Virus record (IMG/VR): IMGVR_UViG_3300035113_000077
Coordinates: 34,651-98,650 of that record
Length of the DNA: 64,000 nucleotides
Origin: a virus
Strand: one strand, 5' to 3'
Part shown: positions 25,499 to 56,459 of the stretch, in pieces
Position numbering within the stretch: the stretch's first letter is position 1
Layout: each line of letters starts with the position of its first letter
Notes under the pieces: generated by a model
What the model was told of the DNA's origin: nothing
The model's input: only the letters and a program-made list of their open reading frames with translations
Databases searched by the model: none
Translations under genes and position numbers: made by a program

Positions 25499-25503
25499 AG
25501 TAA

Positions 25504-25884
25504 TTACCTCTGAACAATTGGTATCTTAATTCCTTGTGATGAAAGAAATCTATAAGCTTCTTTACCAGTTACTTTGCGAAGATCAATTTCACCCTCTTCA
25601 TTATAAAAGTTAGGTGATAAATCTTCCTCTTGTTCCTCTTCAATTTCTTCAGTAAATTTATTTCTTTTCTTCTTAGTAGTCTTAGAATTCTTTTCCAAGT
25701 TTAAGACTTGTTCACGTGACGAATATGACATCATTGCCATTTCAGATTTAGTAAACTTATCTTCTATTTCTGATAATGACATTTTAAATTCTTGCATCCA
25801 GCTACCTGCTGCACTTACTGCTGGGCATTTACTAATGTTGTCGCCACGTCGCTTTGGAAGCCTTGGAAAAGAATCGAGAAAAAA
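25504..25884 (-). CDS. tail assembly chaperone, -1 frameshift extension (gpGT-like)
   Basis: The -1 frame is open from the T TTT TTC slippery site (25878-25884) into ORF 25504..25797. Confidence 0.8.
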   Translation of the reverse strand, partial: FFLDSFPRLPKRRGDNISKCPAVSAAGSWMQEFKMSLSEIEDKFTKSEMAMMSYSSREQVLNLEKNSKTTKKKRNKFTEEIEEEQEEDLSPNFYNEEGEIDLRKVTGKEAYRFLSSQGIKIPIVQR

Positions 25885-26522
25885 TCCCTCATCTTGTTTA
25901 CCTCCACTTGAGCAAGAACTATGGTGGTTATTCTATAATTGGATAGATTCTCAATTACCCAAGCTTCAGTCAACCACTCATGTTTCTTTACTTTATTTTC
26001 TCCTCTAGGTGGATCTAAACAAAGTACACAACACTTTGCCAGTATATCTTGTAATGGTTGAAATAATTCCATCATTCCAAGAATCTTTTGTAGTACATCA
26101 CCTTCAAATGTTCTTAAATTAAAACCGCTAAATTCTTGAGATGCTGAAGCTAAAGAATTCTTTGCAATGGAATATAATTCACGTTCAACACTTTGAGGTA
26201 ATTCCTTCAATATAAAATCAATTGTATCGTTATCTTTTTGTAGTTTAACTTTAAAAGTTACATATTCTTTAGATAACAATTTCTGCAGTTCATCAGCGGA
26301 TAGGGGGATTCTTTTCTTTCTCTCTTCTTCTTCAAATTTTTGAACAGCTTCTCGCAACATCTCATCGTTGTTTTTACGTAGATCATCTTTAAATAGAGCA
26401 ATGTCTATTTCAAATTTCTTTTTAAATTCTTCACGTAATTGTGGTTCAAGTTCTAAGCGAAGTTGTAATTTTAAGGAATCAGTGGTGTCAATAGAATTTG
26501 ACACTATAGGTGTGGTTGACAT
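25815..26522 (-). CDS. tail assembly chaperone (gpG-like)
   Basis: Between tail tube and tape measure; slippery heptamer near the 3' end. Confidence 0.8.
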   Translation of the reverse strand: MSTTPIVSNSIDTTDSLKLQLRLELEPQLREEFKKKFEIDIALFKDDLRKNNDEMLREAVQKFEEEERKKRIPLSADELQKLLSKEYVTFKVKLQKDNDTIDFILKELPQSVERELYSIAKNSLASASQEFSGFNLRTFEGDVLQKILGMMELFQPLQDILAKCCVLCLDPPRGENKVKKHEWLTEAWVIENLSNYRITTIVLAQVEVNKMRDFFSILFQGFQSDVATTLVNAQQ

Positions 26523-35648: not shown

Positions 35649-37576
35649 TTTCTTAATGCCTTCCTATCTTCAGGATTTAGTGATCTAGGAAATTTTGATG
35701 TTGCTTGATTTACTTTCAAATCATTTGCATTTCTGTATCTAGAGCTGTAGCGCGTGTTAATTGCCTTTTCTTGCCATGTTGGCCTATGTTCAGCTTTCTT
35801 GAATTTCTGTGCTTGATCTTTTTCATCTTGCCTAGAAACTTTAGCTGGCCTAGTATGAGCTTCTCCTTCTTCATCCATTTCATCTGCAACATCGAAGAAC
35901 TGTTTCAATTGCTGAGTTAATGTCTGCAGAATTCCTGGTGATTGCTGCTCCATTTGTTGGCCAAGCTCATCTGTCTCTGGAAGCAAATTGTTTTCTTGCA
36001 GCCACTCAATATCTTCGGGTGACATATCAGCAATATCGTCAGCAGTAAATGCAGAGCCACCAATTCCCATCCCAGTTCCTGTACCTAAGCTTCCACCTCC
36101 ACCACCTCCCGGTATTCCAGTTCCCATTCCTGTTGAACCACCATAGCCTCCACCAGCTGCTGCGCCAGTCGGTGGTTTGGCAGCCATAATCATCATCTGC
36201 ATTTGCCCGAATGATAATTTGCCCCATCCACCAGGCAATGGAGGCCTGCCATCATCTTCTCTTATTTCATCTGGAACTAAAGCATTCATTTGATACTTAC
36301 GTTGCTGAATAGTAGCTTTAGTTAACTGATCTGGGTCTTCGAGGCCGATGAATACAAATTCTAAATCTTCCCATCCCAATCTACGATGCAACACTTCATA
36401 AGTGTAGGCTTCGGATAATCTAATTGCCATTGGCACAACGGCACTTAGAAAATCCTGGTCGGACATGACTTTGCCCACTGCCTTATTTACATCTTGAGTC
36501 ATGTTTAGGGAGATTGGACTAATGTCGAAGGCAGCTCCAATGATTTTAATTTGGAACTCTTGCCAATCTAATAGAAGGTCATCAGGGTTGACAGCTTTGA
36601 TATCGATTACTTCTGGCTTTGGCATATTGGCAATCAAACTAATCTTCGACTGCCCTTCTAATTCGTTTTGAATGTAGCGACGAACAGTTTGCATATTCGC
36701 ATTCTGTTGTGCCGATGTCCACCAAAGCATTGTCTTATGAATCTGATCTGCACCAGCTTTACCGGCTGCATCTTGAGATCCAAGAAAATAATTTATTGTA
36801 TTGAATGCAACTTCCATCTTGCCTAATCCAAATGGAGTTGATGATCTGCTGTTATCTCTGATATAAACTAATTCTTTATCATAGAATGCAATGATTCCAC
36901 GTTCACCCTTTAGCCCAGTCATTTGAGCATAATGTGGTTTGATGTCTGCCATCGACTCAGTCCAATCAGCATAAATTCTAATTGTACTGCCGTCTACTGG
37001 CCACATCATAATTGGTCGTTCATAGCTAGGAGTTATTCTAGGTTCGAAGCATCCATAACCACCCAATAGCAAATCTTCCAAAACTTTCTCAGAGAAAGTT
37101 CTAAAACTATCTTGACGATTTGGTCGCTTAAAACATTTCTTAGCAATACGAATTCTTTTTTCTATTTCTGGAGTCAGCTCAACTTCATCGTCTTCTCTTA
37201 TTTCCCAAGGTAAAGTCATAATGATTGAGTTCTTAATTAAGTTTATGGCTCTACGTGGAATTGGAGTCTCGCTGAAGCGACGGAGGTTGTACGGGGTGTT
37301 CTTTAGGATGGGTTGGTTCAGACGGTGCAAAGATTCCGGAAGATATGGGTACTGCCAACTTCTTCTATCTATTATATCTAGCTTTCCTGCTGTTACAGCA
37401 TTTATTCTTTCTTTATGCTGTTGAATTGTCGATGGCCATAATTCTATAGGAGTACTTTTTAATTCTTGAGCATGAGCTACAGATAAAACTTTAATTACTT
37501 CTTTAATACGCAGTCTTTTTACAATACTGGCTTTTAAATCGTTATGCCAAGCTTTTATGTAATCAGTTATTTTCAT
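35645..37576 (-). CDS. portal protein
   Basis: KRPN..DSFRTF, WPVDGSTIR, PFGLGKME, AAFDISP, PDEIR...PLPGG (HK97-type); long Gly-rich/acidic tail. Confidence 0.9.
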   Translation of the reverse strand: MKITDYIKAWHNDLKASIVKRLRIKEVIKVLSVAHAQELKSTPIELWPSTIQQHKERINAVTAGKLDIIDRRSWQYPYLPESLHRLNQPILKNTPYNLRRFSETPIPRRAINLIKNSIIMTLPWEIREDDEVELTPEIEKRIRIAKKCFKRPNRQDSFRTFSEKVLEDLLLGGYGCFEPRITPSYERPIMMWPVDGSTIRIYADWTESMADIKPHYAQMTGLKGERGIIAFYDKELVYIRDNSRSSTPFGLGKMEVAFNTINYFLGSQDAAGKAGADQIHKTMLWWTSAQQNANMQTVRRYIQNELEGQSKISLIANMPKPEVIDIKAVNPDDLLLDWQEFQIKIIGAAFDISPISLNMTQDVNKAVGKVMSDQDFLSAVVPMAIRLSEAYTYEVLHRRLGWEDLEFVFIGLEDPDQLTKATIQQRKYQMNALVPDEIREDDGRPPLPGGWGKLSFGQMQMMIMAAKPPTGAAAGGGYGGSTGMGTGIPGGGGGGSLGTGTGMGIGGSAFTADDIADMSPEDIEWLQENNLLPETDELGQQMEQQSPGILQTLTQQLKQFFDVADEMDEEGEAHTRPAKVSRQDEKDQAQKFKKAEHRPTWQEKAINTRYSSRYRNANDLKVNQATSKFPRSLNPEDRKALRK

Positions 37577-42691: not shown

Positions 42692-43248
42692 TTATGCAAC
42701 CTTCTTTGTTCCTTTTGTAGTTGTCTTCTTTGCATACTTTTTGTTTAGCCCAGTAAGAGTGCTTACCACCCAATTGATGCTTGTCTTTTTAGTATTAGCT
42801 TTTTCAACAAATACTGGTTCACTCATTAATTCCAATCGCTTAAGGGCTTTGTTGAATTTAACAAAAAGCTTTGCTACTTTCTTACCAAGCTTAACTGATT
42901 TCTTTGCTGCCTTCAACTGTTTACGAATTTCTCTCTTATCTTCCTTCTTCAATTGTTTCGCTACTTTATTTTTCACTTTTATTGCTCCTTTTAGTTTATG
43001 TTGTTATCGTTAAATAAAGACTTAATTGCCATAACTATTTCTTTGACTCTTTCAGGTGGCCCACTTGTAAACAATTCAAAGTTAACAACTTTCTCTTTTC
43101 CTTCTTCCAAAGTAGTTATGCAAATAAGTCTCCCTCTAAGTTCCTTCGAAGCTTTCATCATAGATCGTGTTGAGTCATGATCTAAATGCTTAGCACCAAC
43201 ATCTTCCAGATTATAGCTAACTTCCTGCACTTCCAAGTTTGGTCTCAT
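42692..43248 (-). CDS. Lys-rich histone-like protein (42692-42976) and hypothetical protein (42991-43248)
   Basis: Composition and operon packing. Confidence 0.5.
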
Positions 43249-44180
43249 TCGATTACTCCTAAGAATCTAGATGCACGTCGGACACTTGCCATCAGTTGAG
43301 ATGCATATATTTGCGATGGCTCAATCTGAATTGGAACTGTATTGTTTGCTCCCCAAGGGAATATAAAATGCCATCCAAGACATTGGGGATAAAATAAAAT
43401 ATGCTTTGCATCTTGGCTTGCCGCAAGATGGCCCATTCCATTATCAACTGTAATAACTAATTTGGAATTTTTCATTAGAACAGCCAAGTAGTCTAATCTA
43501 ACTCCTGTCATTACTTCTTCTTCGCTTAGCTGCCAACTTTCATCTGGTTTATCATCTGGAGCACCAAGCATTCTTACTAGACCTAGCGTTCGCATAAATT
43601 GAATCAATGGAATCCAATGGCCAGGTTGAAGCATTTTGTTTGGAACGTCACCTTTTCTGCTTGCGCAGCTTGCAGAGAATGGGCTAAATAAAACAAAACG
43701 TTCATCCACTTCAACATCATCTTTCAAGTGAGCTAATGTCACCCAAGGGTCATAATAAGGCTTCCATGCTTTGAATGTTCCAATTGAGTTCGTCAGTGTT
43801 CCAACTTTTGGTGACTCAATTCCAAGTTGATCGCAGAAGCCTTCTATGATATGGCACTGATGGTCGTCAGCATACTTGCCAGCGTCACCTGCGCCAAGAA
43901 CAAATATTTTATCATAAAAAGAATCTACTAAATCAATATACCGATGATCTTTTGGTAAACTCTCTTTTGTAAATATTTGTCTATCATTATCCATACTATA
44001 AAAAATGTTTGTCCACTCAACACCTATTCCTTTATAGAGTCTTGTCACATGATCTTGCTGAGTTAGCAAATCAACTTCATCATATTCTGATCGATGAAGT
44101 CTAAACCATTCACGAATGGCAACACCAGCACATAAAGCATCTCCAATCAAATTATGAGAAATTATAAATACTCTTTTCAT
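43245..44180 (-). CDS. GT9 (ADP-heptose:LPS heptosyltransferase-like) glycosyltransferase
   Basis: HNLIGDAL, FSPFSAS..NK...W, VITVDNGMGHLAA. Confidence 0.8.
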   Translation of the reverse strand: MKRVFIISHNLIGDALCAGVAIREWFRLHRSEYDEVDLLTQQDHVTRLYKGIGVEWTNIFYSMDNDRQIFTKESLPKDHRYIDLVDSFYDKIFVLGAGDAGKYADDHQCHIIEGFCDQLGIESPKVGTLTNSIGTFKAWKPYYDPWVTLAHLKDDVEVDERFVLFSPFSASCASRKGDVPNKMLQPGHWIPLIQFMRTLGLVRMLGAPDDKPDESWQLSEEEVMTGVRLDYLAVLMKNSKLVITVDNGMGHLAASQDAKHILFYPQCLGWHFIFPWGANNTVPIQIEPSQIYASQLMASVRRASRFLGVIE

Positions 44181-45073
44181 TTCCTTCTGCTCCTACGTTT
44201 TGTTTTAATGAGTCGTCTTGATAGCTTTGGATTGCGTTGACAATAGTTAATCAAGTTTTGAAGCATTTGAAAAATAGAATCACGATCTTTCTTCAGATCA
44301 ACAATCCATTTTCCTTTTTCTTCTTCGTTTGGCTTGTGTGCACATATTCTAGCAAGTAAATCTATCTCTGATAGTACAATTGGAAAGAATCCATCCTTTT
44401 TAAGAGTGGCTAACATTTGTTGAGCATATTCCTTAGAGTACATAATAGTACGAAAGTCAATAGATGCTGAGCGTGGCTTTTCACTCAAATCCCCCACTTT
44501 AAATTGTACAGAATCTCCCCGGGCATTTCTTGGTTGCAGAGCTTCTTCCAGAAAGCCAATCACTATTTTGAATTTTGATTCCAGCCTTAGTGATCGCTTC
44601 TCCAGTCTTGTTTGTATCTTTTTAAGTTTAGCATAAACACTAGCTAAAGTCTTTGTTCGAATGATTCCAACTAGAGCTTGTTCAAATTTTTCAATCAGCC
44701 TCCTAAGAATGTCTTCACGTTTACTAAGGTTGTTTGCATTAATTGACATTATTCGAAGGTCTTCAATTGAGTCAAGAATTTTAGCCTTTTTTGTTATTTG
44801 AAGTTTAAGATTTTTTCTCTCGTCATCCTTGATATAGTCTAGAGCAGCATCGTACCAATGAACTGCCGCAATCAACTGGTTCACTCTAGCTTCAGGAATA
44901 GCTGATAGTAAAAGTTTGTATATAGCTTTCAACTGTTTTCGATCTGGTCTTGGTTTACGTTTTCTTTTGCTACCTACAAACTGATTTAATTGAGTTGGCT
45001 TTGGTTTTCTCTTTCGTTTTGACTTTTCAGTCTTTTTTGTCATTGAAGTAGCGACCTCGCTCAAAATTCCCAA
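44177..45073 (-). CDS. basic coiled-coil hypothetical protein
   Basis: 298-aa ORF. Confidence 0.55.
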   Translation of the reverse strand: MGILSEVATSMTKKTEKSKRKRKPKPTQLNQFVGSKRKRKPRPDRKQLKAIYKLLLSAIPEARVNQLIAAVHWYDAALDYIKDDERKNLKLQITKKAKILDSIEDLRIMSINANNLSKREDILRRLIEKFEQALVGIIRTKTLASVYAKLKKIQTRLEKRSLRLESKFKIVIGFLEEALQPRNARGDSVQFKVGDLSEKPRSASIDFRTIMYSKEYAQQMLATLKKDGFFPIVLSEIDLLARICAHKPNEEEKGKWIVDLKKDRDSIFQMLQNLINYCQRNPKLSRRLIKTKRRSRRK

Positions 45074-45245
45074 TACTTTATAAAAACTATTAACTTATCT
45101 GTTAGTTTTTCACACCCTTCTTTGGTTGTGCTATTAACAACAATAGCAGCATAAGTGCTACTCACAGGCAAGTCTTTGTTATAGATAGTTGAAAAATATG
45201 TTCCATCAGATCTTGGCACATTTACACATCCCAATTCAAACATTT

Positions 45246-46547
45246 TTATCTCTCCATTTTGTCTTCTCTTATCTTCAAAAAGACCCCATTACGAACTGCC
45301 GGAAGTTTATCGCCTTTGTGCAGTCGAAGCGAATCAGTCAAACCATAGTGCTCAATTTCAACTACTAATCGCTTCAGTTCTTTTTCTGGCATCTCCCAAA
45401 ATTCAGTTCTATTTTCATCGCTTAACCCCTGACCCACTTCAGAGCGAAATTTCTTTCCATCAATTCTTCCTTCGACGATCAAAGCTCCTAGCTTACCTTT
45501 GTTTTTATGTTTGCCTTCGACTCTTCCAATCACTTTGCAATCAACATTGTCTTTGAATTTGTACTTAAGCCAGTTGCTGCTTCGTTTGAAGTCATAAGTT
45601 CCTTCAATTGGCTTTATAATTATTCCTTCTCCACCTTTCTCAATATACCTTTTGGCAATTTTCTTTATTTCTTTTACCGAGAATGTTCCAACTTCTGCCT
45701 TTGAAATTGAAACGTGTGGAGTTCCCAGAACTGCATGCTTCAAACACGATCTACGTTCCTCCCAAGGTTGTTTGCACTTTCTCTTTTCCCAATCTGTTAA
45801 GTTAAGAATATCAAATGCAACAAAATGCAATCCTTTTACTTTTTTGTTCTTGCTATGAGCACCAGAAACACTTGATCCCCATGACTTGTCTTCGCCTCTT
45901 AATTCTCCATCAACTATCCAACCAGTTCCATGTAGCCTTTTTAACTCTTCAAAAATTATCTCTGTGTTATAGATTGGTCTACCATTTCTAGAAACTGATG
46001 TTGGTTCGCCTTTCTTTGGGAAGATCAAATGACATCTAAGACCATCTAGCTTTTCCTCTATGGCAATTTCTTCTTCAATTTCTTCTTCACCCCATGTCTC
46101 AGCTAGCATAGGATAACACTTGGGAACAAATTCACCAAGATGTTTCTCGAATGACTTCAGTTGCATTCCAATTTTTATATCACGATTAAGAATTTGAATA
46201 AACCAATCAACAATATTGCAGGGTATATGCCCAACCATTGCTTCTACGTAGTCTCGTGCTTTGTCTCCAGTTATTTCTCTATTGCGAAGTTTATCCAACA
46301 TTTCTTTCCAACGAGACCAATGTTTGTCGTGAGGAGTATGACTTGGACGATATGCACCTTCTCCATCTTTCCACCTCACCCAGTAGTTCCAATACGGGTG
46401 GAAAGTGTACGTTAGCATTTCAGTTAGAAGAGCTTTTGTCTTTTCATCTTTAATCAACCTCTTCATTATTTTGTCTTTCTCTAATCTGCTATTTGTTTCT
46501 TTAATTAGAGTAAACGCATTCAAGATTAGTTCAAGTCGTGATCTCAT
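45246..46547 (-). CDS. ATP-dependent DNA ligase (T4-like)
   Basis: PMLA, EEKLDGLR, SRNG, DGEL, FDIL, EGIIIK, WLKYK, OB fold. Confidence 0.95.
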   Translation of the reverse strand: MRSRLELILNAFTLIKETNSRLEKDKIMKRLIKDEKTKALLTEMLTYTFHPYWNYWVRWKDGEGAYRPSHTPHDKHWSRWKEMLDKLRNREITGDKARDYVEAMVGHIPCNIVDWFIQILNRDIKIGMQLKSFEKHLGEFVPKCYPMLAETWGEEEIEEEIAIEEKLDGLRCHLIFPKKGEPTSVSRNGRPIYNTEIIFEELKRLHGTGWIVDGELRGEDKSWGSSVSGAHSKNKKVKGLHFVAFDILNLTDWEKRKCKQPWEERRSCLKHAVLGTPHVSISKAEVGTFSVKEIKKIAKRYIEKGGEGIIIKPIEGTYDFKRSSNWLKYKFKDNVDCKVIGRVEGKHKNKGKLGALIVEGRIDGKKFRSEVGQGLSDENRTEFWEMPEKELKRLVVEIEHYGLTDSLRLHKGDKLPAVRNGVFLKIREDKMER

Positions 46548-47334
46548 TTTGACTTCCTTAATTCTTCAATTAAAGCATCTTTAACACTTTCAAACGTTGA
46601 TCCAGTTGCAAGTAAAACATTATTAAATCTTAAGCGCCACCTGCTCATTTTGCCTACAGCTCCTTTATTAGTTTTATAAGCAGCATAAATGTTAAACTTT
46701 AGTGTTGGCTTTTGTCTAGAAAGTCTATTTGGACGAGATTCACCAATTCCTTTCCCTTCATAATACATCTTTAAGTCCTTTCTGCGTTGTCTGTATGCGC
46801 AGCCCACACTAGAGTTATTTCTTTTCGTGGAAAGTTACTTGGATTTCGATGCTCTTCACTCGATCAGGTTTCACTCCAGCTTTCTCCATTGCTTTGTGCA
46901 TCAGATACACTGAAGTTAGCAAAACACTCTTGTCATCTTTGTCTGCATTTGCACGAAGTGAATGTTTCTTTTCATCAAAATCAGTCATTGTTTGTTTGAT
47001 TACTTTAGCCATTGTTTCTCCTTTATGTTTCCAACTGAGTTAAGAAATTATCAAATTCAGGAAAGTCTGCACGATGCTTCAATCGAAATTTAATTCTCTT
47101 CTTCAGCCACAATGGCAATGAAGAGAATGATCGAAGCGATTCGAATGTCTTCATTTCACCATTAACTTCCTCTTGTGATTTAGAGAAAATCAATTGTTCG
47201 ATTAAATTTTTAGGAACATCGAGTAGTTCGAATAAACCAACTCTTGTTCCTTCAATTTTTATTCCAAGTACTTGTTTTGTTAATGGCCCACTACGTTCTG
47301 CCCAAGTTTCTTTTTCTAGAAAATTAATATTCAT
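46544..47334 (-). CDS. three small hypothetical genes (46544-46807, 46815-47012, 47023-47334)
   Basis: AGGAG RBSs; operon packing. Confidence 0.5.
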
Positions 47335-47343
47335 TTTTCTCCT

Positions 47344-48054
47344 TTATTTAGATAGTTTTTTCCAATGCTTCACAACATTTGGGTGAGCGGCTTCTTTGTC
47401 GGCCAGTTGCTTCTCGGCCTGTTCCTTCAGCCATGGCTTCCATTCCTCCATCGCTTCTGCCAACTTACCCGGTAGATCGTATTGCGGGTAAAGAGCATCT
47501 TCCGCTTTGATTAGGATGAATGGGCCTTTTATGCCGCGAGTTCTGCGGATGAAATCGAGATCGGCGCATGAGGCTTGGATTACGGTCACGCCTAATTGGT
47601 GCGAGACGTAATTGAATGCTGCCGCTGCCGCAAGGCTGAGAGCATAGACGCAGGTTCCATAATCGTGCTGCCGGTCAACAAGCGAGGCGATGTATTCCGT
47701 TAACTGTGCCTGAGTATAGGGCCACGGCTCTTTCGTCTCTCGCATCTCCGCTTCCGTTTGCGCGGCTTCCTTCATAGAAGCAGATATCTTGCGCTGGTAC
47801 TCTTCGGCCTCTTTCTGTCGCGCCTCTTTGTATTCCGGAGAATTGCGGTAGGCTTCGGCAGCGGTTTCAAAATCGACAGACCATTTCTTCTCAAGTTGCT
47901 CTGGCGAATCTCCGGGCTGCGCTATTACTTCTGTGCCATTGAACTCAAAGCGGACTGAATCCCGCTCTGCATTGGCGCGGTCAACTGCTTCTTTGCAAGC
48001 AGCCGAAATGTGCATTCCTACGAAATTTTCTAGTGTAATCATTTTAATCTCCAC
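47344..48054 (-). CDS. hypothetical protein in a GC-rich patch
   Basis: 236-aa ORF with HDYGTCVYA motif; many G/C-ending codons. Confidence 0.65.
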   Translation of the reverse strand: MEIKMITLENFVGMHISAACKEAVDRANAERDSVRFEFNGTEVIAQPGDSPEQLEKKWSVDFETAAEAYRNSPEYKEARQKEAEEYQRKISASMKEAAQTEAEMRETKEPWPYTQAQLTEYIASLVDRQHDYGTCVYALSLAAAAAFNYVSHQLGVTVIQASCADLDFIRRTRGIKGPFILIKAEDALYPQYDLPGKLAEAMEEWKPWLKEQAEKQLADKEAAHPNVVKHWKKLSK

Positions 48055-48267
48055 TTTGCCGATTCAAATCCATTCATACTCATCACCGAATTACGATGAG
48101 CAATCAAATGCTGTACAACTGAAGTTGCTTCAGCATATGTTTTTACTATTCGATAGTAACCATCTTTGTCTTCAATTCTTATTCCACCAACAATCTTAGT
48201 TACTATTGGTTGACGATTACTCTTTGTGGCTGCCAACTTTTGAGAGCCAGCAGCCACAGCAGAGTTA

Positions 48268-49686
48268 TTAGTTGATTGAGTCGCTACGAAAGGTCGAAGC
48301 ACTAGGGTGACCTCCACGATCACCCTTTTCTTGGTTTCCACGAGCAGTAATTGATTCAAGCAGAGTGCGAACATCTTCAATTGATGTCCACGGAGCATGC
48401 AGCCTACGAAGCTCAGGACGAGTTGCACTAGTATAGAGCATATCACCACGAGTCATCAAGTGCTGAGCACCAGTCGTTCCAAGAATCGTCGAACTATCAC
48501 GATGGCTTGGGAGCCTGAATGACAAACGAGCTGGGAAGTTGGCTTTGATTGCGCCAATTACTGTTTTAACATCTGGTCTCTGCGTTGCTGCAATCACATA
48601 GATTCCAGCTGCACGAGAGCGAGCAGTAATTACTTTCAGTTTATCTGCATTGGCTTTTGCTTCACTACGACTCTGCTCCATGCCAAGGATATCAGCCAGT
48701 TCATCAATTACAATTACTATCAAAGGTAGCCTTGCATGTTCAGGAACCTTTGCATTGTACTGATGAATGTTCTGCACATCTTGTTCGCCAAGCTTATCGT
48801 AGCGAATTTGAGTTTGCTTTACACAATAGTCAAGAGCAGCCATTGTCGAATAAACATCACTGCAATAACCACCATGAACCAATCGTGGGTCACTTATAAG
48901 GTGAGGTACATCACGGAATGCTTTGAACTCCACACCTTTTGTATCACTGATAATCAACTGCAACTCTTTTGGAGTCATTGCAAAAAGCATCGAGAGAACA
49001 ATTGCTCGAATGCCAGTTGACTTTCCAGAGCCAGTCGTTCCAGCCATAAGCAAATGTGGCTGCATGGTTAGATCATCAACGTAGGGCTTTCCAGCAACAT
49101 CCATGCCAAAGTTCAAAGGAATTGGCTTGTGCCCATCTTCAGTTTCGATCTGCATGAATTCAATGATATGCTCAAGAGTATCTTTCAGTTCGATACGTTG
49201 CTTCTTCTCGTTGGCTACAAAAACACCAACAGCAGAATCACCAGGCATCATCTTCACGAGAACTGATTCACGGCCAAGAGCTACTGCAAAGTCGCCACCA
49301 AGTTGTTCAAGTTGCTTCACTTTGGTGCGACGACCTGGCTTAAAGCGATAGGTGGTTACGTAAGGCCCAACAGTTACTGGCCCAACAAAATCCATCGAAC
49401 GCCCAAGAGCAAGAGTCTTATCCAGAACAGTTTCGATTACTTGCTTTTGTTCTGGAGAACATTTTGTCATTGGATTCTTTGCTTCAGCTTTCTTCTTCTC
49501 TACTTTCGGATCTTCCATGACAAACTTTTTTCTCGGTGAAGCCGCCAACTTCACACGTTCCTGGTGTGGCTCAGTGCGATAGTCACCTTTCTTTGAGCCT
49601 TTGGTAAATTTGCATTTCTTGTTTGTCCACGCACCACACTTTGGGCAAATAACATCTTTCCAAGTTTGCTTACTATGCTTTGACAT
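48268..49686 (-). CDS. FtsK/SpoIIIE-like ATPase with N-terminal Zn finger; no TM or gamma domain
   Basis: GPYVTTY alpha domain, PHLLMAGTTGSGKS, DTKGVEF, VIDELAD, RAAGIYVIAATQRP, IKANFPARLSF, DSSTILG..GAQHL..RGDML; N-terminal CPKC-x7-C...PHQER. Confidence 0.92.
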   Translation of the reverse strand: MSKHSKQTWKDVICPKCGAWTNKKCKFTKGSKKGDYRTEPHQERVKLAASPRKKFVMEDPKVEKKKAEAKNPMTKCSPEQKQVIETVLDKTLALGRSMDFVGPVTVGPYVTTYRFKPGRRTKVKQLEQLGGDFAVALGRESVLVKMMPGDSAVGVFVANEKKQRIELKDTLEHIIEFMQIETEDGHKPIPLNFGMDVAGKPYVDDLTMQPHLLMAGTTGSGKSTGIRAIVLSMLFAMTPKELQLIISDTKGVEFKAFRDVPHLISDPRLVHGGYCSDVYSTMAALDYCVKQTQIRYDKLGEQDVQNIHQYNAKVPEHARLPLIVIVIDELADILGMEQSRSEAKANADKLKVITARSRAAGIYVIAATQRPDVKTVIGAIKANFPARLSFRLPSHRDSSTILGTTGAQHLMTRGDMLYTSATRPELRRLHAPWTSIEDVRTLLESITARGNQEKGDRGGHPSASTFRSDSIN

Positions 49687-49693
49687 TTTGTTT

Positions 49694-49709
49694 CTCCTCA
49701 AGATTAGTT
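49694..49709 (-). promoter_or_regulatory. conserved leader AACTAATCTTGAGG(A/T)G fused to the RBS (also 51068-51083, 53680-53695; variant 52795-52811)
   Basis: Repeated sequence directly before the starts of four early genes. Confidence 0.7.
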
Positions 49710-49731
49710 TTTGGTTTTTTGTTTAACAGCT

Positions 49732-50430
49732 TTAGAACTCTGTATCTCCATACTTAAAGTTCTTGTGATAAGCAAACGAATTAGGTTCTTTTCGCAAATA
49801 CTCATCTGTTGGTAACAACTTACCATTCTCAACATAAGAGCCTTCACCACCAATAAAACAATAACCCGGATCAGGTTCTTTGTATAAAGATAATTCAACA
49901 TTTTTCGTTTCCGTATCTTGCATTGCACATGCACAATAAGGAATACCTTTAAATTCGATTGTCCCCCAAACTGTCAATTCTTGATTTCCAGCTTTAATCA
50001 TTTTTTGATGCTCTTTTTCAGATCGCCAATTGTCACGACTATGACGATTCACTTTCATTTTGTGTTTACCAATTTGCAAAAATTGGTCAATCTTAACATT
50101 TTCAATTGTTGTTTTCATTTTTCCTCCTACGCAAAAATAAGGACTTTTTCAAGTCCAGTAGTCACAAATTCTACCTAAGAATATTATAGTAAAAACTCAT
50201 GATTACGTCAATGGTTATTTTTCACCCATTTTAATTGGATCAAATAGAGTATATTGATCTACCCACCCAATCCAAGACGTTGTTCCATTTTCAAATTGCT
50301 TCATCACTTTACGCTTTGGAGCTGCCATCGAATTGTTCTTTTTCATAAATACTGGTTGAATGATTAGTCTATCCATCCCATCAGCAGTTAATCGAAGCAT
50401 TGCAAATTTCTTCTCATAATCATCTGCCAT
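49732..50430 (-). CDS. two early hypothetical genes (49732-50118, 50215-50430)
   Basis: GGAGG / GGAG RBSs. Confidence 0.6.
50183..50211 (-). promoter_or_regulatory. strong sigma70-type early promoter
   Basis: TTGACG-17nt-TATAAT. Confidence 0.85.
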
Positions 50431-50439
50431 ACTTACTCC

Positions 50440-51060
50440 TTAAAGAATGTCTCCAGCACCAGCAACACTAATTGTCGCCGGCACTGAATTAGCTAGATCA
50501 TTGTTAAACCACAGCAACAGAGCATCGAAGTGATATCCACTATTAAATACTAATGGTTGGCCTGATGCTCCTTCAAATGGAATTGCAATTGGAACTGAGT
50601 GTGATGCTTGCATTTTGGACATGTGCAAAATTTCTTTCTGTCCGTTGTCGATTGCATAGAGCCACGTTACTATGCTCGTTGCATTGTTTGTCCACGGTTC
50701 CAATCCAACATTTCCACGAAGATTAACGATCGTACCTACATGAGGTACAAAAATAGGGCATCCAGAAAGCGTTGGGTCGTCGATCAATGCAACTAATCCA
50801 ATCTCCAGAGTAAATGACATCGAGTGTGGCCACATATAAACGTCACCTTGGCAATAACCAAGTTCTTTTCCATTTGCATCTTTAATGTGATGAACCCAGT
50901 GGCAATTGTCTCCACCAGTTACTGGGCCACAAGTCAAAGGAACTTCAGGGCCAATCGTTGGCGGAGCAGTTGAGCTTGCCTGCACAGATGAAACACCGCC
51001 GCAGCCAGTCATTAACATCACTGCGATCAAGATATAAGCGATTGCTGAATTGATTTTCAT
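50440..51060 (-). CDS. lipoprotein
   Basis: MKINSAIAYILIAVMLMTGC lipobox; start reset by RBS. Confidence 0.75.
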   Translation of the reverse strand: MKINSAIAYILIAVMLMTGCGGVSSVQASSTAPPTIGPEVPLTCGPVTGGDNCHWVHHIKDANGKELGYCQGDVYMWPHSMSFTLEIGLVALIDDPTLSGCPIFVPHVGTIVNLRGNVGLEPWTNNATSIVTWLYAIDNGQKEILHMSKMQASHSVPIAIPFEGASGQPLVFNSGYHFDALLLWFNNDLANSVPATISVAGAGDIL

Positions 51061-51098
51061 TTTATTTCTCCTCAAGATTAGTTTTTGTTTTTGTAGGT

Positions 51099-51680
51099 TT
51101 ACTTTACTTTAGACTTCGTCTTAACTGATCTTCCTTCAACTTTGGCTGCCAACTTTTTAAGTCGACGAAGTTCGTAGCGTGTACATTTTTTATTGTTGTC
51201 TGCAATATGAAGAAATTTCATTTCAGAAGCAGTAAACGTTTCGTCTAACTTTTCTATATCAACTGAAAGTATTTTCTTCAATATTGTTTTTGCTCTTTGA
51301 TGTAAGGGCTTTACTGTTTTCAATCCTTTCTTTTTGTGGCTCAACGTCATTTCATGTTTGCCATGGCAAGGGCGATGCACTAAAGATTTATTTCCACAAA
51401 TAGCAAAAATCAAATCTGGAGTAAATCGTTCTTTTAACACTTTGTGAGCTGTTAAATTATTCATCAAATACTTTCCAGAATTGTCACGATGCTTGCCATT
51501 GCGGTGGTGCGTAGTCAATTTCAGATTCTTCAATGGTGAATGAGTTTTGTTGCCAAATACTTTGTCTGCAAGCTTTGGATCGAGCAAAGGCAATCCACAA
51601 AACTCACAACACACAAGAGGTAGCAGAAAGTGAGCTACCTCTCGCAATGCACGAATTTCAGTTTTTGTGCTATTTCTCAT
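51099..51680 (-). CDS. degenerate HNH-like / Zn-binding protein
   Basis: CEFC...LTTHHRNGKHRDN...LVHRPCH..H. Confidence 0.55.
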   Translation of the reverse strand: MRNSTKTEIRALREVAHFLLPLVCCEFCGLPLLDPKLADKVFGNKTHSPLKNLKLTTHHRNGKHRDNSGKYLMNNLTAHKVLKERFTPDLIFAICGNKSLVHRPCHGKHEMTLSHKKKGLKTVKPLHQRAKTILKKILSVDIEKLDETFTASEMKFLHIADNNKKCTRYELRRLKKLAAKVEGRSVKTKSKVK

Positions 51681-52224
51681 ATGGGTACACTAAGTACTTT
51701 TTAATTATCTGAAGTATTTCTTTGTTTACATCAGCAGCAGCATCAGCAGCAGCACGAGCAGCAGCATAAGCAGCATAAGCAGCAGCATCAGCAGCAGCAC
51801 GAGCATCAGCAGCAGCACGAGCAGCAGCATAAGCAGCAGCATCAGCAGCATCAGCAGCAGCACGAGCAGCAGCATCAGCAGCAGCACGAGCAGCAGCATC
51901 AGCAGCATAAGCAGCAGCATCAGCAGCATAAGCAGCATCGTTAGTCGGATTTTCTATCCAAAATTCCGCTGCTTCAATTGCTTTAAGTGGCCTCAGTTCA
52001 TTTTCAGGAACAAACTTCAGAACCAATCGAGCAATTTGGCAAGCAACAATAACAAATTGCTTTTTGTCGTTCTTGTTTGTTCTACCAGCCCACCAAAAGA
52101 TCCAATCAATTCTTTCACATTCATTCCAACATTGTTGAGGAGTCTTATCAGATGCCCAAATTCTAGCACCTTCACAAGCACCCAAAGTCTTAAGATGAGT
52201 TTGTAGTTCTGTTAACTTTTTCAT
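51670..52224 (-). CDS. Imm5-like protein with Ala-rich repeat
   Basis: GACEG..W, ERIDWIFW, ARLVL..ELRPLKAIEAAE.W then AAYAADAAARAA repeats. Confidence 0.65.
   Translation of the reverse strand: MKKLTELQTHLKTLGACEGARIWASDKTPQQCWNECERIDWIFWWAGRTNKNDKKQFVIVACQIARLVLKFVPENELRPLKAIEAAEFWIENPTNDAAYAADAAAYAADAAARAAADAAARAAADAADAAAYAAARAAADARAAADAAAYAAYAAARAAADAAADVNKEILQIIKKYLVYPYEK
51729..51938. repeat. imperfect GCA tandem repeat encoding poly-Ala with D/R/Y interruptions
   Basis: Units gcagcatca, gcagcacga, gcagcataa. Confidence 0.95.
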
Positions 52225-52372
52225 TGTAAGTCTATCCCTTCTGTCCTTTCAGCTGCCAACTTTTGCATCGATGGTTCAGGATTGTAAAGATCAACATACT
52301 TGATGATCTTATCTGTGAAATGGTCGATGGCTTTCAATTGTGTTTTCCAGAATTGATCTTCAGTTCGAATTT

Positions 52373-53154
52373 TCATGGCTTATCCTTTATAGGAATTTCA
52401 TTCACAGGGCCAAGTAAATGAGCAAAAACTTTTCCTGTTCGTGAATTAAAACCAACACCATTCACTTTAACAAAGTTAAGAGCATCATCTTCGGATGAGG
52501 CAAATATATGAATCGTTGTTGGTTTCCAACCAGGATACAAAGTATACCATACTTCAAACTTTTTATTTTCCATGTTTAGAACCTCCAGATTCTGCCAGTA
52601 TTGTTCTGTCCACGATTGTCAGCTTTCGGAATGTACGAAGGCAACGGCTGAGCTGCCAACTTTTCACGATCAAACTGAGATGCATGAGTTACACCAGTTC
52701 TACGGCCATGGCGAACTGCATAGTTAATTCGCTGGGCATCGTAGGCCATCATCGCAACCATTGAGAACTTTGAATTTTCGTTGGTCATAATTTTCTCCAA
52801 AAGATTAGGTTGATTGTTTAGAGTGGTCTGTATAAAGAATTATACAGATTTTAATGCAATTTCTAAATCTTTTCTGACTTGCTCTTCATCTTTCACGTTT
52901 TGAAAATCTTCGAAAGAGAAACAACCATCAATGCAAGCTGAAAAATTCAGAACATTCAAAAAGTACCAACTTGCATATTCAGAATTGTTAACAATAAGAT
53001 GAGTTTGGCAACTCATCAAATTTTTTGCATGAGCAGGAACCTCATCTACTGTTAATGGAAGTGTAAAGGTTCGAAAGTAATGGCCATCAAAGTTGCCTTT
53101 GTAACAAACTGCAACATATCTACGAGTTGGCGATACAACTTTAGTTGTTAACAT
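52373..53154 (-). CDS. three small early genes (52373-52573, 52576-~52788, 52840-53154)
   Basis: GGAG / GGAGG RBSs. Confidence 0.55.
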
Positions 53155-53172
53155 TTTTTAATCCTCCCGTTC

Positions 53173-53199
53173 AAGTCTACTGTCACACTCAGTAGACTT
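53173..53199. other. perfect 10-bp inverted repeat (processing site or terminator)
   Basis: AAGTCTACTG-7nt-CAGTAGACTT, intergenic. Confidence 0.6.
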
Positions 53200-53217
53200 T
53201 GGCTTGAAGATTAACTT

Positions 53218-53682
53218 CTAGGCCGCCAACTTCATGCCATCTGATTTCACAACCAGCTTCAGGTTGCGTTGCTTTGCCCACAAAGCAACTTGAGCTGTCT
53301 TCTGCTTTATCCGTTTTGCAACTTTGGCATCGGTGAAGCCAAGCTTCTTCACTGCATGTTTAATTGCAGAGATGCTCACTGTTTTGCCTTTGTTTTTCAG
53401 AAGCAGGTTGATCATCGTTGCACGAGTTGTCTTTCCACGAACGGCTGCCAACTTTGAACTCGATTTTGAGCTGGATGAAGATTTTGCTGAGCTGCGGTTT
53501 GTAGCTTTTTTCACAACTTCTCCTTTTAATTTTTTGATGTGGATGCAGTTTTTCCAAATTTTAAAGCCGATGCACGAACAGGTTAAACTTTTGCCCACTC
53601 GATACTGCTTGTGAACGACATCTGGATGTGAGGAGCTTTTTGCTCTACCCACTAGAACTTTTTTAAGTTTCATTTTCATCAC
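53218..53682 (-). CDS. SWIM-type Zn finger plus basic wHTH-like protein
   Basis: CSC.GF....CIH; Ser-rich linker; LLKNKGKTVSI. Confidence 0.65.
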   Translation of the reverse strand: MMKMKLKKVLVGRAKSSSHPDVVHKQYRVGKSLTCSCIGFKIWKNCIHIKKLKGEVVKKATNRSSAKSSSSSKSSSKLAAVRGKTTRATMINLLLKNKGKTVSISAIKHAVKKLGFTDAKVAKRIKQKTAQVALWAKQRNLKLVVKSDGMKLAA

Positions 53683-53713
53683 CTCAAGATTAGTTAATTG
53701 TTTTGGAAAAGTT

Positions 53714-53866
53714 TTACTTCAGAGCTGCCAACTTTTTGGCAATTTCAAGTTTGATTTGCCGTTTATCTTTTGCAACAATTCCGTAAGCTTCATCTGCAAA
53801 TCTCAATTCATCTTTAACAGCTTTCACACAACGATCAACGACTTCTTTCATTTCAGAAGCTCTCAT
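53714..53866 (-). CDS. first early gene, small hypothetical protein
   Basis: GAGGT RBS before MRASEM. Confidence 0.55.
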   Translation of the reverse strand: MRASEMKEVVDRCVKAVKDELRFADEAYGIVAKDKRQIKLEIAKKLAALK

Positions 53867-53956
53867 TTTAACCTCTTTGAATTTGTTGGATTTTAGAAGG
53901 CCCACGCCAGTTAAGGGTTTCAAGTGAACCGGTAGGCATATCTTCCACCTAGGAAT

Positions 53957-53985
53957 ATTATAGGAAACTCAGGGGTCGATTGCAA
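53957..53985 (-). promoter_or_regulatory. strong sigma70-type early promoter with AT-rich UP region
   Basis: TTGCAA-17nt-TATAAT; downstream ATTCCTAGGTGGAA matches the 50183 promoter (ATTCTTAGGTAGAA). Confidence 0.8.
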
Positions 53986-54082
53986 GGATTATTTTCTGTT
54001 ATTTTTAGTACGAAGAAAAAGCGAAGCTTATTTGAAGGTTTTTTTTAAATCTGCTGGAATATCACTTTAGAGCTGCCAACTT

Positions 54083-55849
54083 TTAGGACACAGATTCCAT
54101 CTCTTCCTCTTCGTCTTCTACTGTTCCATATACGTGGGCTCGCCAAGTCAAGGGGTCTAGGTACCCAAGAACGATAAGTCGTGTAATGTGAGCAACACTC
54201 GTGGCAAAGACCATGTCATCAAAATGTCCTTCCATTGCTGCCGGTCTGCCCGTTTCATCATATATGAATGTAAAACACTCCTGTACGAAAGTTATGTCCC
54301 AAATTAATTCTGGATGATGCCGTACAAACCACGCCGCTTTATTGAGTAGAATTTTTCGAGTCTTATTTGTTGTTGGCCATCCTTCGAACTCTGCCCACTT
54401 CCTCTTATCGACATTCTTATCTCTTTTCCACCACTCTTTGTGTCGATAAATATTTCCGTAGCCTAGTTCTCTAGCAGCAAGAATTACTGTTCCACCATGG
54501 TTATTTCTTTCGATTGCGAGCAATGCATCATTGTAGTGCTGGCAAATTTCCACAGCATCAGCAGCTGCATCTTCAGGAGCTAATCTTGCCCGATATGCTA
54601 AACACTCTTCACCGGTTTCTCTGTCGATTAATTTGCCACATGTCCAATCACCCACTTCTGTTCCTGCCTGAATAATTCCTTTGCCCTCTGCAGGGTCCAT
54701 TCCAAAGATATAATTACGACCTCTACGTGGCTTCTGGAAAATTGTCACTTCACCATTGCGTTCGATATCTAATGGCTTATAAACTTGAAGCTCTGCAATC
54801 CTTGCTGCAAGCACTTCCTGATCAAAGAATAAACGACCAGACGTTAAGAAGCACGTTGTAGAATCTTCAGGATACTTCTCTTTGAAGTTGTGGCGTAGCG
54901 AAACCATCTTCTTTCTGCGCCATGTCATTTGCTCTAAATCTAAATTGAATAATTGCTGCTTGCGTCTTTCTTCTTCATTTAGTTCTTCTTCTGTTAAAAC
55001 ATTATCTATAATTCTATATTCATCATGCCAAAACCACGGATGGAAGTGAGCAACAAATTCACAATCTTTTCCACCTTGTTCTGCTCTTTTATATTCTTCA
55101 TAATAATATCCACCCATTCCATTAGGAGTTGATTCGATATCATGGGTTCCACCAGCAGCTAAGGCTTCCTTCACGTTGGCCATTGTCTCTTCAGGATTCC
55201 CAGGCCATCTCGCAGTTTCTGTGCAAACAAGATGTTGCAAAGTGAACCCCTGCCCTGCCTCTTCCACCTCTGCTGATTCAATATTAACTCTGGAATCAAT
55301 CTGATCGAAGATTAATTCTTTCTTTGTTGATGCTGATGTATGAAGTAAATTCTGAAGCAATTGCCTATGTAGAACATTTATTTCATCATTCCAAGGGTCT
55401 AGGCATCCAACGTATCTATGGGCTCTTTTCAGAATGCTAAAATGCATTGCTGCATAATGATGATTCTGAGATACGAGCATCCCAGTTGTTCCTGGTTCTA
55501 AAAACGATGGAAGATATAAACGAGTATTAATAAAGAACGTGGTATATCCAGCTTGGCGAGGCTTATTGCAGATATTCTTTAGCCCCATCTTCTTATCTAA
55601 ATCACGTTGGATGCGATTAAATTTGAAGGGAACTAAACGACGATTCCAGTGTGCTGTTGGAAGAACTTGAACTGTATCTGGTTCGGGGTTCTTGCGAAGA
55701 ATCCAAAGAAGATTTTGAGCTACATACTTACGACCATAAACTCGATACATCGCTTGAAGAGCTTCAAGCTGCATTCGAACAATGCCTTGATCTGGGTCAC
55801 CTAATTTTCTGCCTTTTATTAGAGTTAATGGCACACAATAATTCCTCAA
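54083..55849 (-). CDS. terL: terminase large subunit
   Basis: KPRQAGYTT, VCTETARW, IESTPNG, GMDPAEG, IERNNHG, HFDDMVFA. Confidence 0.92.
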   Translation of the reverse strand: MRNYCVPLTLIKGRKLGDPDQGIVRMQLEALQAMYRVYGRKYVAQNLLWILRKNPEPDTVQVLPTAHWNRRLVPFKFNRIQRDLDKKMGLKNICNKPRQAGYTTFFINTRLYLPSFLEPGTTGMLVSQNHHYAAMHFSILKRAHRYVGCLDPWNDEINVLHRQLLQNLLHTSASTKKELIFDQIDSRVNIESAEVEEAGQGFTLQHLVCTETARWPGNPEETMANVKEALAAGGTHDIESTPNGMGGYYYEEYKRAEQGGKDCEFVAHFHPWFWHDEYRIIDNVLTEEELNEEERRKQQLFNLDLEQMTWRRKKMVSLRHNFKEKYPEDSTTCFLTSGRLFFDQEVLAARIAELQVYKPLDIERNGEVTIFQKPRRGRNYIFGMDPAEGKGIIQAGTEVGDWTCGKLIDRETGEECLAYRARLAPEDAAADAVEICQHYNDALLAIERNNHGGTVILAARELGYGNIYRHKEWWKRDKNVDKRKWAEFEGWPTTNKTRKILLNKAAWFVRHHPELIWDITFVQECFTFIYDETGRPAAMEGHFDDMVFATSVAHITRLIVLGYLDPLTWRAHVYGTVEDEEEEMESVS

Positions 55850-55898
55850 CTAGAATTTTGTGATACCAATAACTCTTCATCTGATAATTAAATTTCTT

Positions 55899-56459
55899 TT
55901 ACACACCACTTAATGTCTTTGATTCTTTTGGATAGATAACAAAATTCTTTGAAAGAACTTTAAATGCTTCAAATGGATTTACTTTCTTTGGAAGTAAAAC
56001 TGTTTTATGAAGTAAATTCCAGAATTCTCCTTGAATAGCTTTTTCTGAATAGTTCAGCTTTGAAAATATATGGCCACTATCCATGATTCCATCTTCACCA
56101 AAGAAATTTGTAAATCCTTCTTTTACCATTCTAAATTCTTGTTCAGATGAAAATGAAAACGGTTGACCTGCATAATGCTGGAACAAAACATGATCACCAA
56201 CTTCTAAAGCAGTCTTAATTTTTAAGTGGTCTGCCTTCCATAATTTCACTACAACACCTTCTAGTGTTACTTTGTTCTGATGTTTTTCATCACCTGGAAC
56301 CCATAGAGAACCAATTCTCTGTTCACGTGGTAGTACATATACAAGCACCCACGGAAATTTAGGATACCAATTTCCATAGTCCGGATGAAATTCATTATGT
56401 AACTCAGCAGATAACAATGCAATCTTCTTCTTTATTTCTTGTATTCTCGTTGCCATCAT
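55899..56459 (-). CDS. GroES/Cpn10-like co-chaperonin with extensions
   Basis: P..PWVLV....RIGSLWVP....EGVVV...LEVGDHVLFQHYAG. Confidence 0.75.
   Translation of the reverse strand: MMATRIQEIKKKIALLSAELHNEFHPDYGNWYPKFPWVLVYVLPREQRIGSLWVPGDEKHQNKVTLEGVVVKLWKADHLKIKTALEVGDHVLFQHYAGQPFSFSSEQEFRMVKEGFTNFFGEDGIMDSGHIFSKLNYSEKAIQGEFWNLLHKTVLLPKKVNPFEAFKVLSKNFVIYPKESKTLSGV

Follow-up and report, generated by a model that had tools for sequence, protein, structure and literature searches.

The last 64 kb of the 98,650-bp IMG/VR virus record IMGVR_UViG_3300035113_000077 (positions 34,651 to 98,650; this whole stretch is referred to here as the window) carry a large terminase gene, terL (54083-55849; a PHROG terminase), and, in the genes that follow it, an array of ten copies of an asymmetric 12-bp word, AAAGTTGGCAGC, of which terL forms the upstream border. 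The record is estimated to cover 83% of the genome and comes from an uncultured tailed phage, with genes for a tape-measure protein, a portal, DNA polymerase A, a DnaB-like helicase and an ATP-dependent ligase. All of its open reading frames (ORFs; 158/158) lie on one strand, and every window feature described below is on the minus strand. The window terL is at best about 26% identical to those of cultured phages and has no match in bacterial genome contigs, and a megablast search with the array region against cultured phages gives no match. The block after terL, from 54 to 46.5 kb, consists of small ORFs, nearly all without a family, and has a GC content of 40-42%, above that of most remaining parts of the window. 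Three genes inside the array are candidate readers of the word: gene B (53218-53682), which encodes a predicted winged-helix protein; gene H (51099-51680), an HNH nuclease gene; and a gene for an FtsK/SpoIIIE-like ATPase (48268-49701).

The non-palindromic word AAAGTTGGCAGC occurs exactly eight times, and a variant that departs from it by a transition (A>G or C>T), GAAGTTGGCGGC, occurs twice. All ten copies are on the minus strand; nine of them fall within 5.9 kb after terL (48229-54083), corresponding to 6% of the genome, and the tenth is an outlier at 43529. The other 34.6 kb of the record were also scanned and contain no additional exact copy. In the whole record AAAGTTGGCAGC is the most frequent non-tandem 12-mer, and it is absent from 100 dinucleotide shuffles; when up to two mismatches are allowed, the coding strand has 17 matches and the opposite strand has none, compared with about 4.3 per strand in the shuffles. 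The flanks past the 12 bp are unrelated among the copies, which rules out recent duplication as their source, with a weak [R]AAG about 3 nt downstream of the word at about half of the sites. A first-pass annotation of the window had reported eight exact and two variant copies on one strand, nine of them within 48.2-54.1 kb, with a chance expectation near nil, and our recount agrees with it in each of these respects. It had also described the copies as co-oriented with transcription; all ten do share a strand, but because all of the ORFs do so too, co-orientation with transcription is indistinguishable from plain strand specificity.

Copy 1 (54072-54083) is non-coding, overlaps terL by a single base (its first A is also the final A of the stop codon TAA), and lies 87 bp upstream of an early promoter, P1. 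Copy 2 (53724-53735) encodes K-L-A-A near the end of a 69-residue ORF, three codons from its stop, and copy 3 (53444-53455) encodes the same residues at positions 77-80 of gene B, at the end of a disordered linker. Gene B also contains a variant copy (53222-53233) that makes up its final four codons (…MKLAA-stop) and is not found at the orthologous place in the relative L026 described below. Further exact copies encode K-L-A-A in a 74-residue ORF (52652-52663) and in the C-terminal helix of gene H (51145-51156), and another lies nine codons before the stop of a 51-residue ORF (52252-52263). The second variant copy (49541-49552) is in the FtsK-like gene, in the linker between its zinc finger and its motor, and the copy at 48229-48240, located 28 nt after the FtsK-like stop codon, is probably non-coding and forms the 3' arm of a hairpin. 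The outlying copy (43529-43540) is inside a GT9-like glycosyltransferase gene and is read there in the frame E-S-W-Q. Seven or eight of the ten copies are thus inside ORFs. The places occupied are C-terminal tails, inter-domain linkers and short spacers. There are also three near-copies on the coding strand (2174-2185, 37351-37362 and 14044-14055), a number not above chance: AAAGTTGGTAGC is intergenic, immediately follows a TAG and has the next ATG about 70 nt downstream, GAAGTTGGCAGT falls in the portal gene and ATCGTTGGCAGC in the helicase gene, and their differences inside the 9-bp core are all transitions.

The codons used at these sites are constrained well beyond the peptide. In the called genes of the array all seven K-L-A-A peptides are encoded as AAG-TTG-GC[A/G]-GCY; the genome-wide shares of these codons are 0.375, 0.18 and 0.44, which puts the probability of seven such sites at about 2e-11. 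K-L-A-A occurs just twice elsewhere, written AAA-CTA-GCA-GCA and AAA-TTA-GCT-GCT. The overlap of the first copy with the terL stop about 90 bp before a promoter, as described in the first-pass annotation, is borne out, and so are the observations on which that annotation had based a claim of selection at the DNA or RNA level (fixed K-L-A-A codons, the E-S-W-Q reading at 43529 and one intergenic copy).

The set of related phages compared at the DNA level comprises L026, G001 (a whole genome) and L028 (a 1.7-kb fragment), and other relatives were compared as proteins. L026 is a Joint Genome Institute (JGI) soil-metagenome contig with a terL 77% identical to that of the window, followed in the same order by homologs of gene B and of the 74-residue, HNH, 71-residue and FtsK-like proteins. 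It contains seven copies of GTGGCAGC, a word one letter shorter than AAAGTTGGCAGC, all on the plus (coding) strand and with 0.2 copies expected, and one additional copy of AAAGTTGGCAGC in a gene missing from the window; GTGGCAGC itself has no copies in the window. Four sites are orthologous between the two phages. After terL the L026 site (at 1251) begins 3 nt beyond the stop codon, and its frame relative to terL differs from that in the window. In the gene B linker TCA AAG TTG GCA GCC of the window corresponds to CAG AAA GTG GCA GCT of L026 (at 5031; AAAGTGGCAGC, K-V-A-A), and in the 74-residue gene GAA AAG TTG GCA GCT corresponds to GAG CAA GTG GCA GCG (at 6276; CAAGTGGCAGC, Q-V-A-A). The fourth site is about 25 nt after the FtsK-like stop codon in L026. 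The L026 counterpart of the gene H copy at 51145 is degenerate (AAAATTGGCAGT). At the coding orthologous sites, therefore, K-L has become K-V or Q-V in a manner that preserves the one-base-shorter DNA word. Because the codons are fixed, because there are non-coding and other-frame copies, and because a sister word occupies homologous sites in L026, selection is on the nucleotides (DNA or RNA) and not on the peptide.

The change of this cis-element in L026 is concerted, and this implies that a trans-acting reader changed alongside it. That the word is a lineage-specific, oriented cis-element whose reader changes with it, and that this reader is probably encoded in the same module, is a conclusion we regard as very likely. 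In the two more distant relatives the word is missing: G001, whose terL is 63% identical and whose GC content is 56%, is without the word and without any comparable oriented k-mer after its terL, and it lacks gene B, the HNH gene and the FtsK-like gene, and there is no word in L028 (terL 60% identical). At the protein level closer terL homologs are P0001 (98%), P0003 (84%, on a 61-kb contig) and P0002, P0004, P0005 and P0006 (76-78%). Metagenome homologs of gene B mostly have K-[LV]-A-A at the linker site, with the C-terminal copy in the closest ones only. IMG/VR gave no match to the FtsK-like protein, whether it was searched as a single sequence or in an alignment.

The region in which the word is concentrated has a recognizable transcriptional layout. 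P1 (53957-53985; TTGCAA-17-TATAAT) and a second early promoter, P3 (50183-50211; TTGACG-17-TATAAT, with a stem-loop and a T run downstream), are members of one repeated cassette that consists of AAAATAAT, TTGCAA or TTGACR, a 17-bp spacer, TATAATATTCTTAGGT… and a stem-loop. After the spacer the cassette reads TATAATATTC(T/C)T(A/G)GGT(C/G)GAA, and it usually ends in a GC stem-loop with an AAAAA loop and a T run (GGACTTGAAAAAGTCC TTATTTTT). It is present at 53925-54010 and 50120-50240 in the window and at 1290-1380, 4225-4320 and 8445-8560 in L026. Because this sigma-70-type cassette is repeated and common to both phages and is accompanied by small ORFan genes, it is reasonable to regard the post-terL region as an early block driven by the host polymerase, as the first-pass annotation had supposed from the window itself. 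No sigma-factor domain was found in a search of the record; a search for a T7-type RNA polymerase also gave no match, but it left control genomes unmatched as well and is hence uninformative. The layout is similar to the promoter-early stem-loop (PeSL) cassettes of T4-type phages, in which short control sequences recur along a plastic region of small early genes, except that the 12-bp word of the window is separate from the promoter cassette and is mostly inside coding sequence.

As to what reads the word, the array resembles stoperator-, nick-site- or KOPS-like systems (KOPS, FtsK orienting polar sequences) and is a variant of them. In our own ranking a transcriptional roadblock comes first, followed by nick sites, loading sites for the FtsK-like motor, an RNA element, a recombination linker, a Chi-like shield and, last, a shared peptide. 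The roadblock is ranked first because the sites are confined to the early block and one of them separates the terL transcript from the first early promoter; it is a tentative choice and in absolute terms would more often prove wrong than right. The word would be an orientation-dependent recognition site written into an early block of the host-takeover type wherever the proteins tolerate it. A sequence-specific DNA-binding protein from the same block would bind the array, and, once bound, would block the elongating host RNA polymerase in one direction. Such a one-way block could shut down or insulate the early block, including from read-through of the terL transcript, and it would be analogous to the block on elongation by the stoperators of Cluster A mycobacteriophages. 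That the word is bound by a protein, which protein this is, and that transcription is what it affects are all points that we infer.

Gene B is the preferred binder because it is an early, fast-evolving, predicted DNA-binding protein whose own gene contains two of the sites. Gene B comes second after P1, and its product begins with a SWIM-like CxC..CxH N-terminal domain (a putative finger), which a Ser-rich, disordered linker joins to a winged helix at the C-terminus. In the AlphaFold2 model (predicted local distance difference test score, pLDDT, of 79) the C-terminal domain matches the winged helices of OmpR/PhoB-type proteins, ScpB and PurR with VIA Z values of 8.1-8.7. Foldseek gives no match in the PDB at E <= 0.001 for either of two models, and a profile search against PDB sequences gives nothing significant. 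Gene B and its L026 ortholog are 38% identical. The C-terminal LAA of its product (…MKLAA-stop) resembles the end of the ssrA degradation tag, and this ending is common to the closest homologs only.

The stoperators themselves provide the closest model for this reading. In the Cluster A phages (the L5 gp71 and TipsytheTRex repressors; PMC9283540, PMC6550527), as in the window, an asymmetric word of 12-13 bp is present in many copies, which follow the direction of transcription there and share the one strand of all the ORFs here, and the sites act there, or would act here, on elongation and not on initiation. The 13-bp stoperators act in one orientation only, and the two DNA-binding domains of the repressor are proposed to let other immune specificities evolve (PMC9283540). 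The first-pass annotation had listed stoperator-like repressor sites among its hypotheses, and the idea survives as a possibility; the promoter overlap and the integrase that it might have led one to expect were not found. Cluster A stoperators are genome-wide and one of them acts as an operator at an early lytic promoter, neither of which applies to the window, where the copies lie within about 10 kb, are mostly intragenic and are never at a promoter; an immunity repressor or integrase was likewise not found, and the fold of the candidate binder (a SWIM-like finger and a winged helix) is different.

Several observations weigh against a roadblock by gene B. At the cassettes at 53985 and 50211, and likewise at those of L026, the -35 and -10 elements are free of copies, so that there is no operator proper, and the distances from a copy to the next promoter vary (87, 50 and 43 nt). 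Most copies are inside genes, whereas stoperators occupy short intergenic spaces. Gene B is no more tied to the word than are the HNH gene or the zinc finger of the FtsK-like protein. The G.U pairs of the hairpin at 48229 point to an RNA or single-strand feature, for which a roadblock binding to duplex DNA has no need. The shift of the word is known from one informative relative, L026, at the DNA level. Finally, a search for Phage_integrase domains in the 83%-complete record found none, nor were there other signs of a temperate lifestyle.

An explanation that did not figure among the hypotheses of the first-pass annotation is that the copies are nick sites, at each of which the HNH protein encoded by gene H nicks one strand, which would make them comparable to the 'single-chain interruptions' known from T5, phiKMV-like and tf/LUZ24-like phages. 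In its sequence pattern this is a close match, and it corresponds point by point to what has been described for phage tf (PMC3517423). The tf nick word is an exact asymmetric 9-bp sequence with 14 copies on one strand; in tf relatives the word differs by one base and occupies similar positions, and one part of the genome has the highest density of copies (PMC3517423). Nick sites of the tf/LUZ24, phiKMV-like and T5 types and the window array thus share an exact, short, asymmetric, one-strand consensus in about 10-14 copies, an uneven density along the genome, and relatives with a slightly altered word at similar positions, represented here by the four orthologous sites of L026 (PMC3517423). However, the known sites are spread over the genome (PMC3517423), and the window copies, seen here as sequence features, cluster beside terL, with nine of the ten in 6% of the genome.

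Gene H is a candidate nickase. It has a helical C-terminal extension, and its CxxC…HH…N…HxxCH residues, the catalytic and zinc residues of HNH proteins, are invariant or nearly so in 33 homologs, some of which match Pfam HNH_3 and HNH. The best PDB profile match is to I-HmuI, a nicking enzyme, at a weak E = 0.3, and nothing in the profile search against PDB sequences is significant. The gene is present in L026 and missing from G001. A neighbouring cluster in the Atlas carries the label 'Phage_T5_Nicking_endo', which we take as a lead only. Gene H has no similarity to the T5 endonucleases T5.141 and T5.154, a tblastn search against phages gives no match, and free-standing HNH genes are common. 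Weighing the pattern against these points, we consider nick sites a real possibility, albeit an unlikely one.

The first-pass annotation had also suggested loading sites for the FtsK-like motor. In this explanation the word loads and orients a translocase of the FtsK type that lacks a gamma domain and reads its sites through an N-terminal zinc finger, in the manner of KOPS, of the SpoIIIE recognition sequences (SRS) and of TraB at clt, and movement would be one-way along the first-entering or early DNA. The protein matches Pfam FtsK_SpoIIIE (2e-35), FtsK_alpha and Phage_zn_bind_8, the last being the N-terminal phage zinc finger; the Pfam motor match ends at residue 377, homology with L026 continues to about residue 460 of 477, and there is no gamma domain. 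FtsK-family motors are known to be guided by polar words, namely the 8-bp KOPS and SRS (PMC8190038), and TraB, an FtsK homolog of mobile elements, reads 8-bp direct repeats in clt (PMC4447253). The likeness to these systems (PMC8190038, PMC4447253) is that of short polar words guiding an FtsK-family motor, and with Streptomyces TraB there is the further parallel that the cis-site and the motor gene are within the same mobile element. The word and the FtsK-like gene are found together in the window and L026 and are both missing from G001, and the strongest site, an inverted double copy, follows the stop codon of the gene in both phages. Moreover, the finger and linker are visibly more divergent from L026 than is the motor, as expected if specificity has shifted.

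There are nevertheless substantial differences. KOPS, SRS and clt words are 8 bp long and are read by a C-terminal winged helix (gamma in FtsK and SpoIIIE), whereas the window motor lacks gamma and has an N-terminal zinc finger, which would need to bind DNA specifically. KOPS are genome-wide and skewed, whereas the window word is 12 bp (with an 8-bp core in L026) and local to about 10 kb. The copy at 43529 lies beyond the inverted pair and has the same orientation as the others. Co-occurrence in two phages, which speaks for the hypothesis, is equally true of the HNH gene and of the winged-helix gene B. We know of no phage FtsK-like protein with a known cis-site. Taken together, these considerations make loading sites unlikely, and we place them third. 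The fuller proposal, that a soluble FtsK-type phage pump has lost gamma, gained a zinc finger and reads a private 12-bp polar word in the leading early DNA, such that one-way loading draws in the genome or sweeps off host proteins while word and finger change together, is more doubtful still; if true, such a pump would be the phage version of KOPS.

The hairpin after the FtsK-like gene (48219-48265) bears primarily on a reading at the RNA level. It has a 14-bp inner stem with three G.U pairs and the word as its 3' arm (-29.1 kcal/mol, z -7.4), and all four of its departures from perfect complementarity are G.U-compatible. The L026 hairpin (10104-10132; -20.4 kcal/mol, z -4.1) has one G.U pair, and its 5' arm is one base shorter, matching the shorter word. 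G.U compatibility in the predicted fold favours an RNA or single-strand structure, and the departures could also reflect avoidance of a perfect copy on the reverse strand. Just after the hairpin (48174-48188; about 10140-10155 in L026) each phage has, in order, a Shine-Dalgarno sequence (GGTGGA or GAGGAG), 6 nt and an ATT that is in frame with a conserved downstream ORF having no ATG, GTG or TTG nearby, and this ATT may be the start codon of that ORF.

An RNA-level element could be the site of a regulator or endoribonuclease in early transcripts, or a pairing partner for the 'anti-word' of the hairpin. The first of these would be analogous to the action of RegB or RegA on T4 early mRNAs. Every copy is on the transcribed sense strand, the variant copies differ by A>G or C>T transitions, and the hairpin is wobble-compatible with a 5' arm shortened along with the word. 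Against this, the other nine of the ten copies have no significant local structure, and a 7-bp hairpin at 53724 is no better than shuffles (z -0.9). The predicted RNA accessibility of the copies is ordinary (percentiles 0.11-0.67). Copy 1 precedes the first early promoter and would be confined to the 3' untranslated region of terL. An Rfam scan matched a tRNA only, with no family at the motif copies or the hairpin. Of the antitermination or RNA-binding sites put forward in the first-pass annotation, then, one hairpin speaks in favour, and we judge an RNA element improbable.

Comparison by BLASTN of the window with L026 shows homology blocks that start or stop at copies. The terL block stops exactly at copy 1; an 88%-identical DNA block (the 3' part of the 74-residue gene) begins at the 52652 copy; the FtsK motor block begins inside the 49541 copy; and the winged-helix block of gene B begins 8 nt after a copy. 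The word might accordingly be a recombination junction or linker, a short sequence at gene and domain borders that permits in-frame module swaps between related phages. Twelve of the 13 intragenic copies of both phages are in one reading frame, which would keep swaps in frame, and L026 holds a window-type word in a gene missing from the window. However, 12 bases are very short for homologous exchange, unequal protein constraint at linkers and tails gives such borders anyway, and the conserved word is in itself an anchor for BLAST alignments. As a selective force evolvability is also weak, and this reading gives no account of why the word changed in concert. A role as a linker is correspondingly hard to credit.

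Still less probable is a Chi-like shield, in which the complement of the word (GCTGCCAAC…; GCTGCCAC in L026) is read by host RecBCD or AddAB entering from the leading DNA end, and degradation is halted. Tandem one-way sites leading from a possible genome end would suit a low recognition per site, the 8-bp core in L026 is the size of Chi, and the orientation suits an entering end on the terL side. But the word tracks a phage module rather than an identified host, G001 is without a comparable post-terL array, and the exactness over 12 bp is beyond that of any Chi known to us. A shared K-L-A-A peptide such as a degron or cleavage site, with the DNA playing no role, can be dismissed: most copies do encode K-L-A-A and the gene B product ends in …LAA, but the codons are identical in all of these copies against genome usage, non-coding and other-frame copies contradict it, and the post-terL word of L026 is in a different frame relative to terL.

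A number of other identities for the word were considered and rejected. As a sigma-70 -35 element (TTGGCA) it has no -10 in the aligned downstream flanks, with only 52652 having a weak TACATT at 18 bp, and the L026 word is without TTGGCA. There is no GC ten bases beyond the GG, as a sigma-54 promoter would have. Internal TTG or GTG starts for mini-ORFs lack a Shine-Dalgarno sequence, and the tail copies would give 3-6 residues only. The D-arm of the phage tRNA-Arg is unlike the word, which excludes D-arm mimicry, and DNA uptake sequences are excluded by its presence on one strand and in one region rather than on both strands genome-wide. The proposal in the first-pass annotation of recruitment or exclusion signals for DpdA is implausible, in that ten sites confined to 10 kb cannot serve a genome-wide modification.

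Some features of the surrounding DNA are of separate interest. From terL to the ligase gene (46000-56000) the GC content is 39-42%, compared with 32-36% on the flanks and 39% in L026 overall, and this module may have moved between phages of unlike base composition. Many of the terL relatives are 900-970 residues long, one with a Pfam intein domain (P0002, P0005, P0010-P0012, P0024), and the terL match in G001 is interrupted by about 930 bp (G001 25455-26386); members of this terL family often carry inteins or other insertions, and the window terL has none. Within the array, a 184-residue ORF (51670-52224) contains a long Ala-rich tandem repeat (AAYAADAAARAAADAA…) that is the source of the most frequent 11-16-mers in the genome, and another reading frame of that strand is open over 51726-51938 as a Leu-rich ORF. 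The 120.7-kb G001 genome has 36-bp repeat arrays at 43171-44240 (L021:3171-4240), with GAACGAGTCA followed by 26 variable bases in at least 11 copies and three runs on one strand; these could be iterons or an array like the clustered regularly interspaced short palindromic repeats (CRISPR), and nothing similar is present in the window.

The array constitutes a compact case, in which ten sites (eight exact and two variant), three candidate readers encoded within it and, from a relative, a natural variant of the specificity are available together. If the word is the site of a regulator such as gene B, elongation control of the stoperator type would extend to apparently lytic phages outside the actinobacteriophages. 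If gene H nicks at the word, the long-unexplained nicks of phages would have a defined enzyme and site, and if the FtsK-like motor is the reader, a cis-site would for the first time be known for an FtsK-like protein of a phage.

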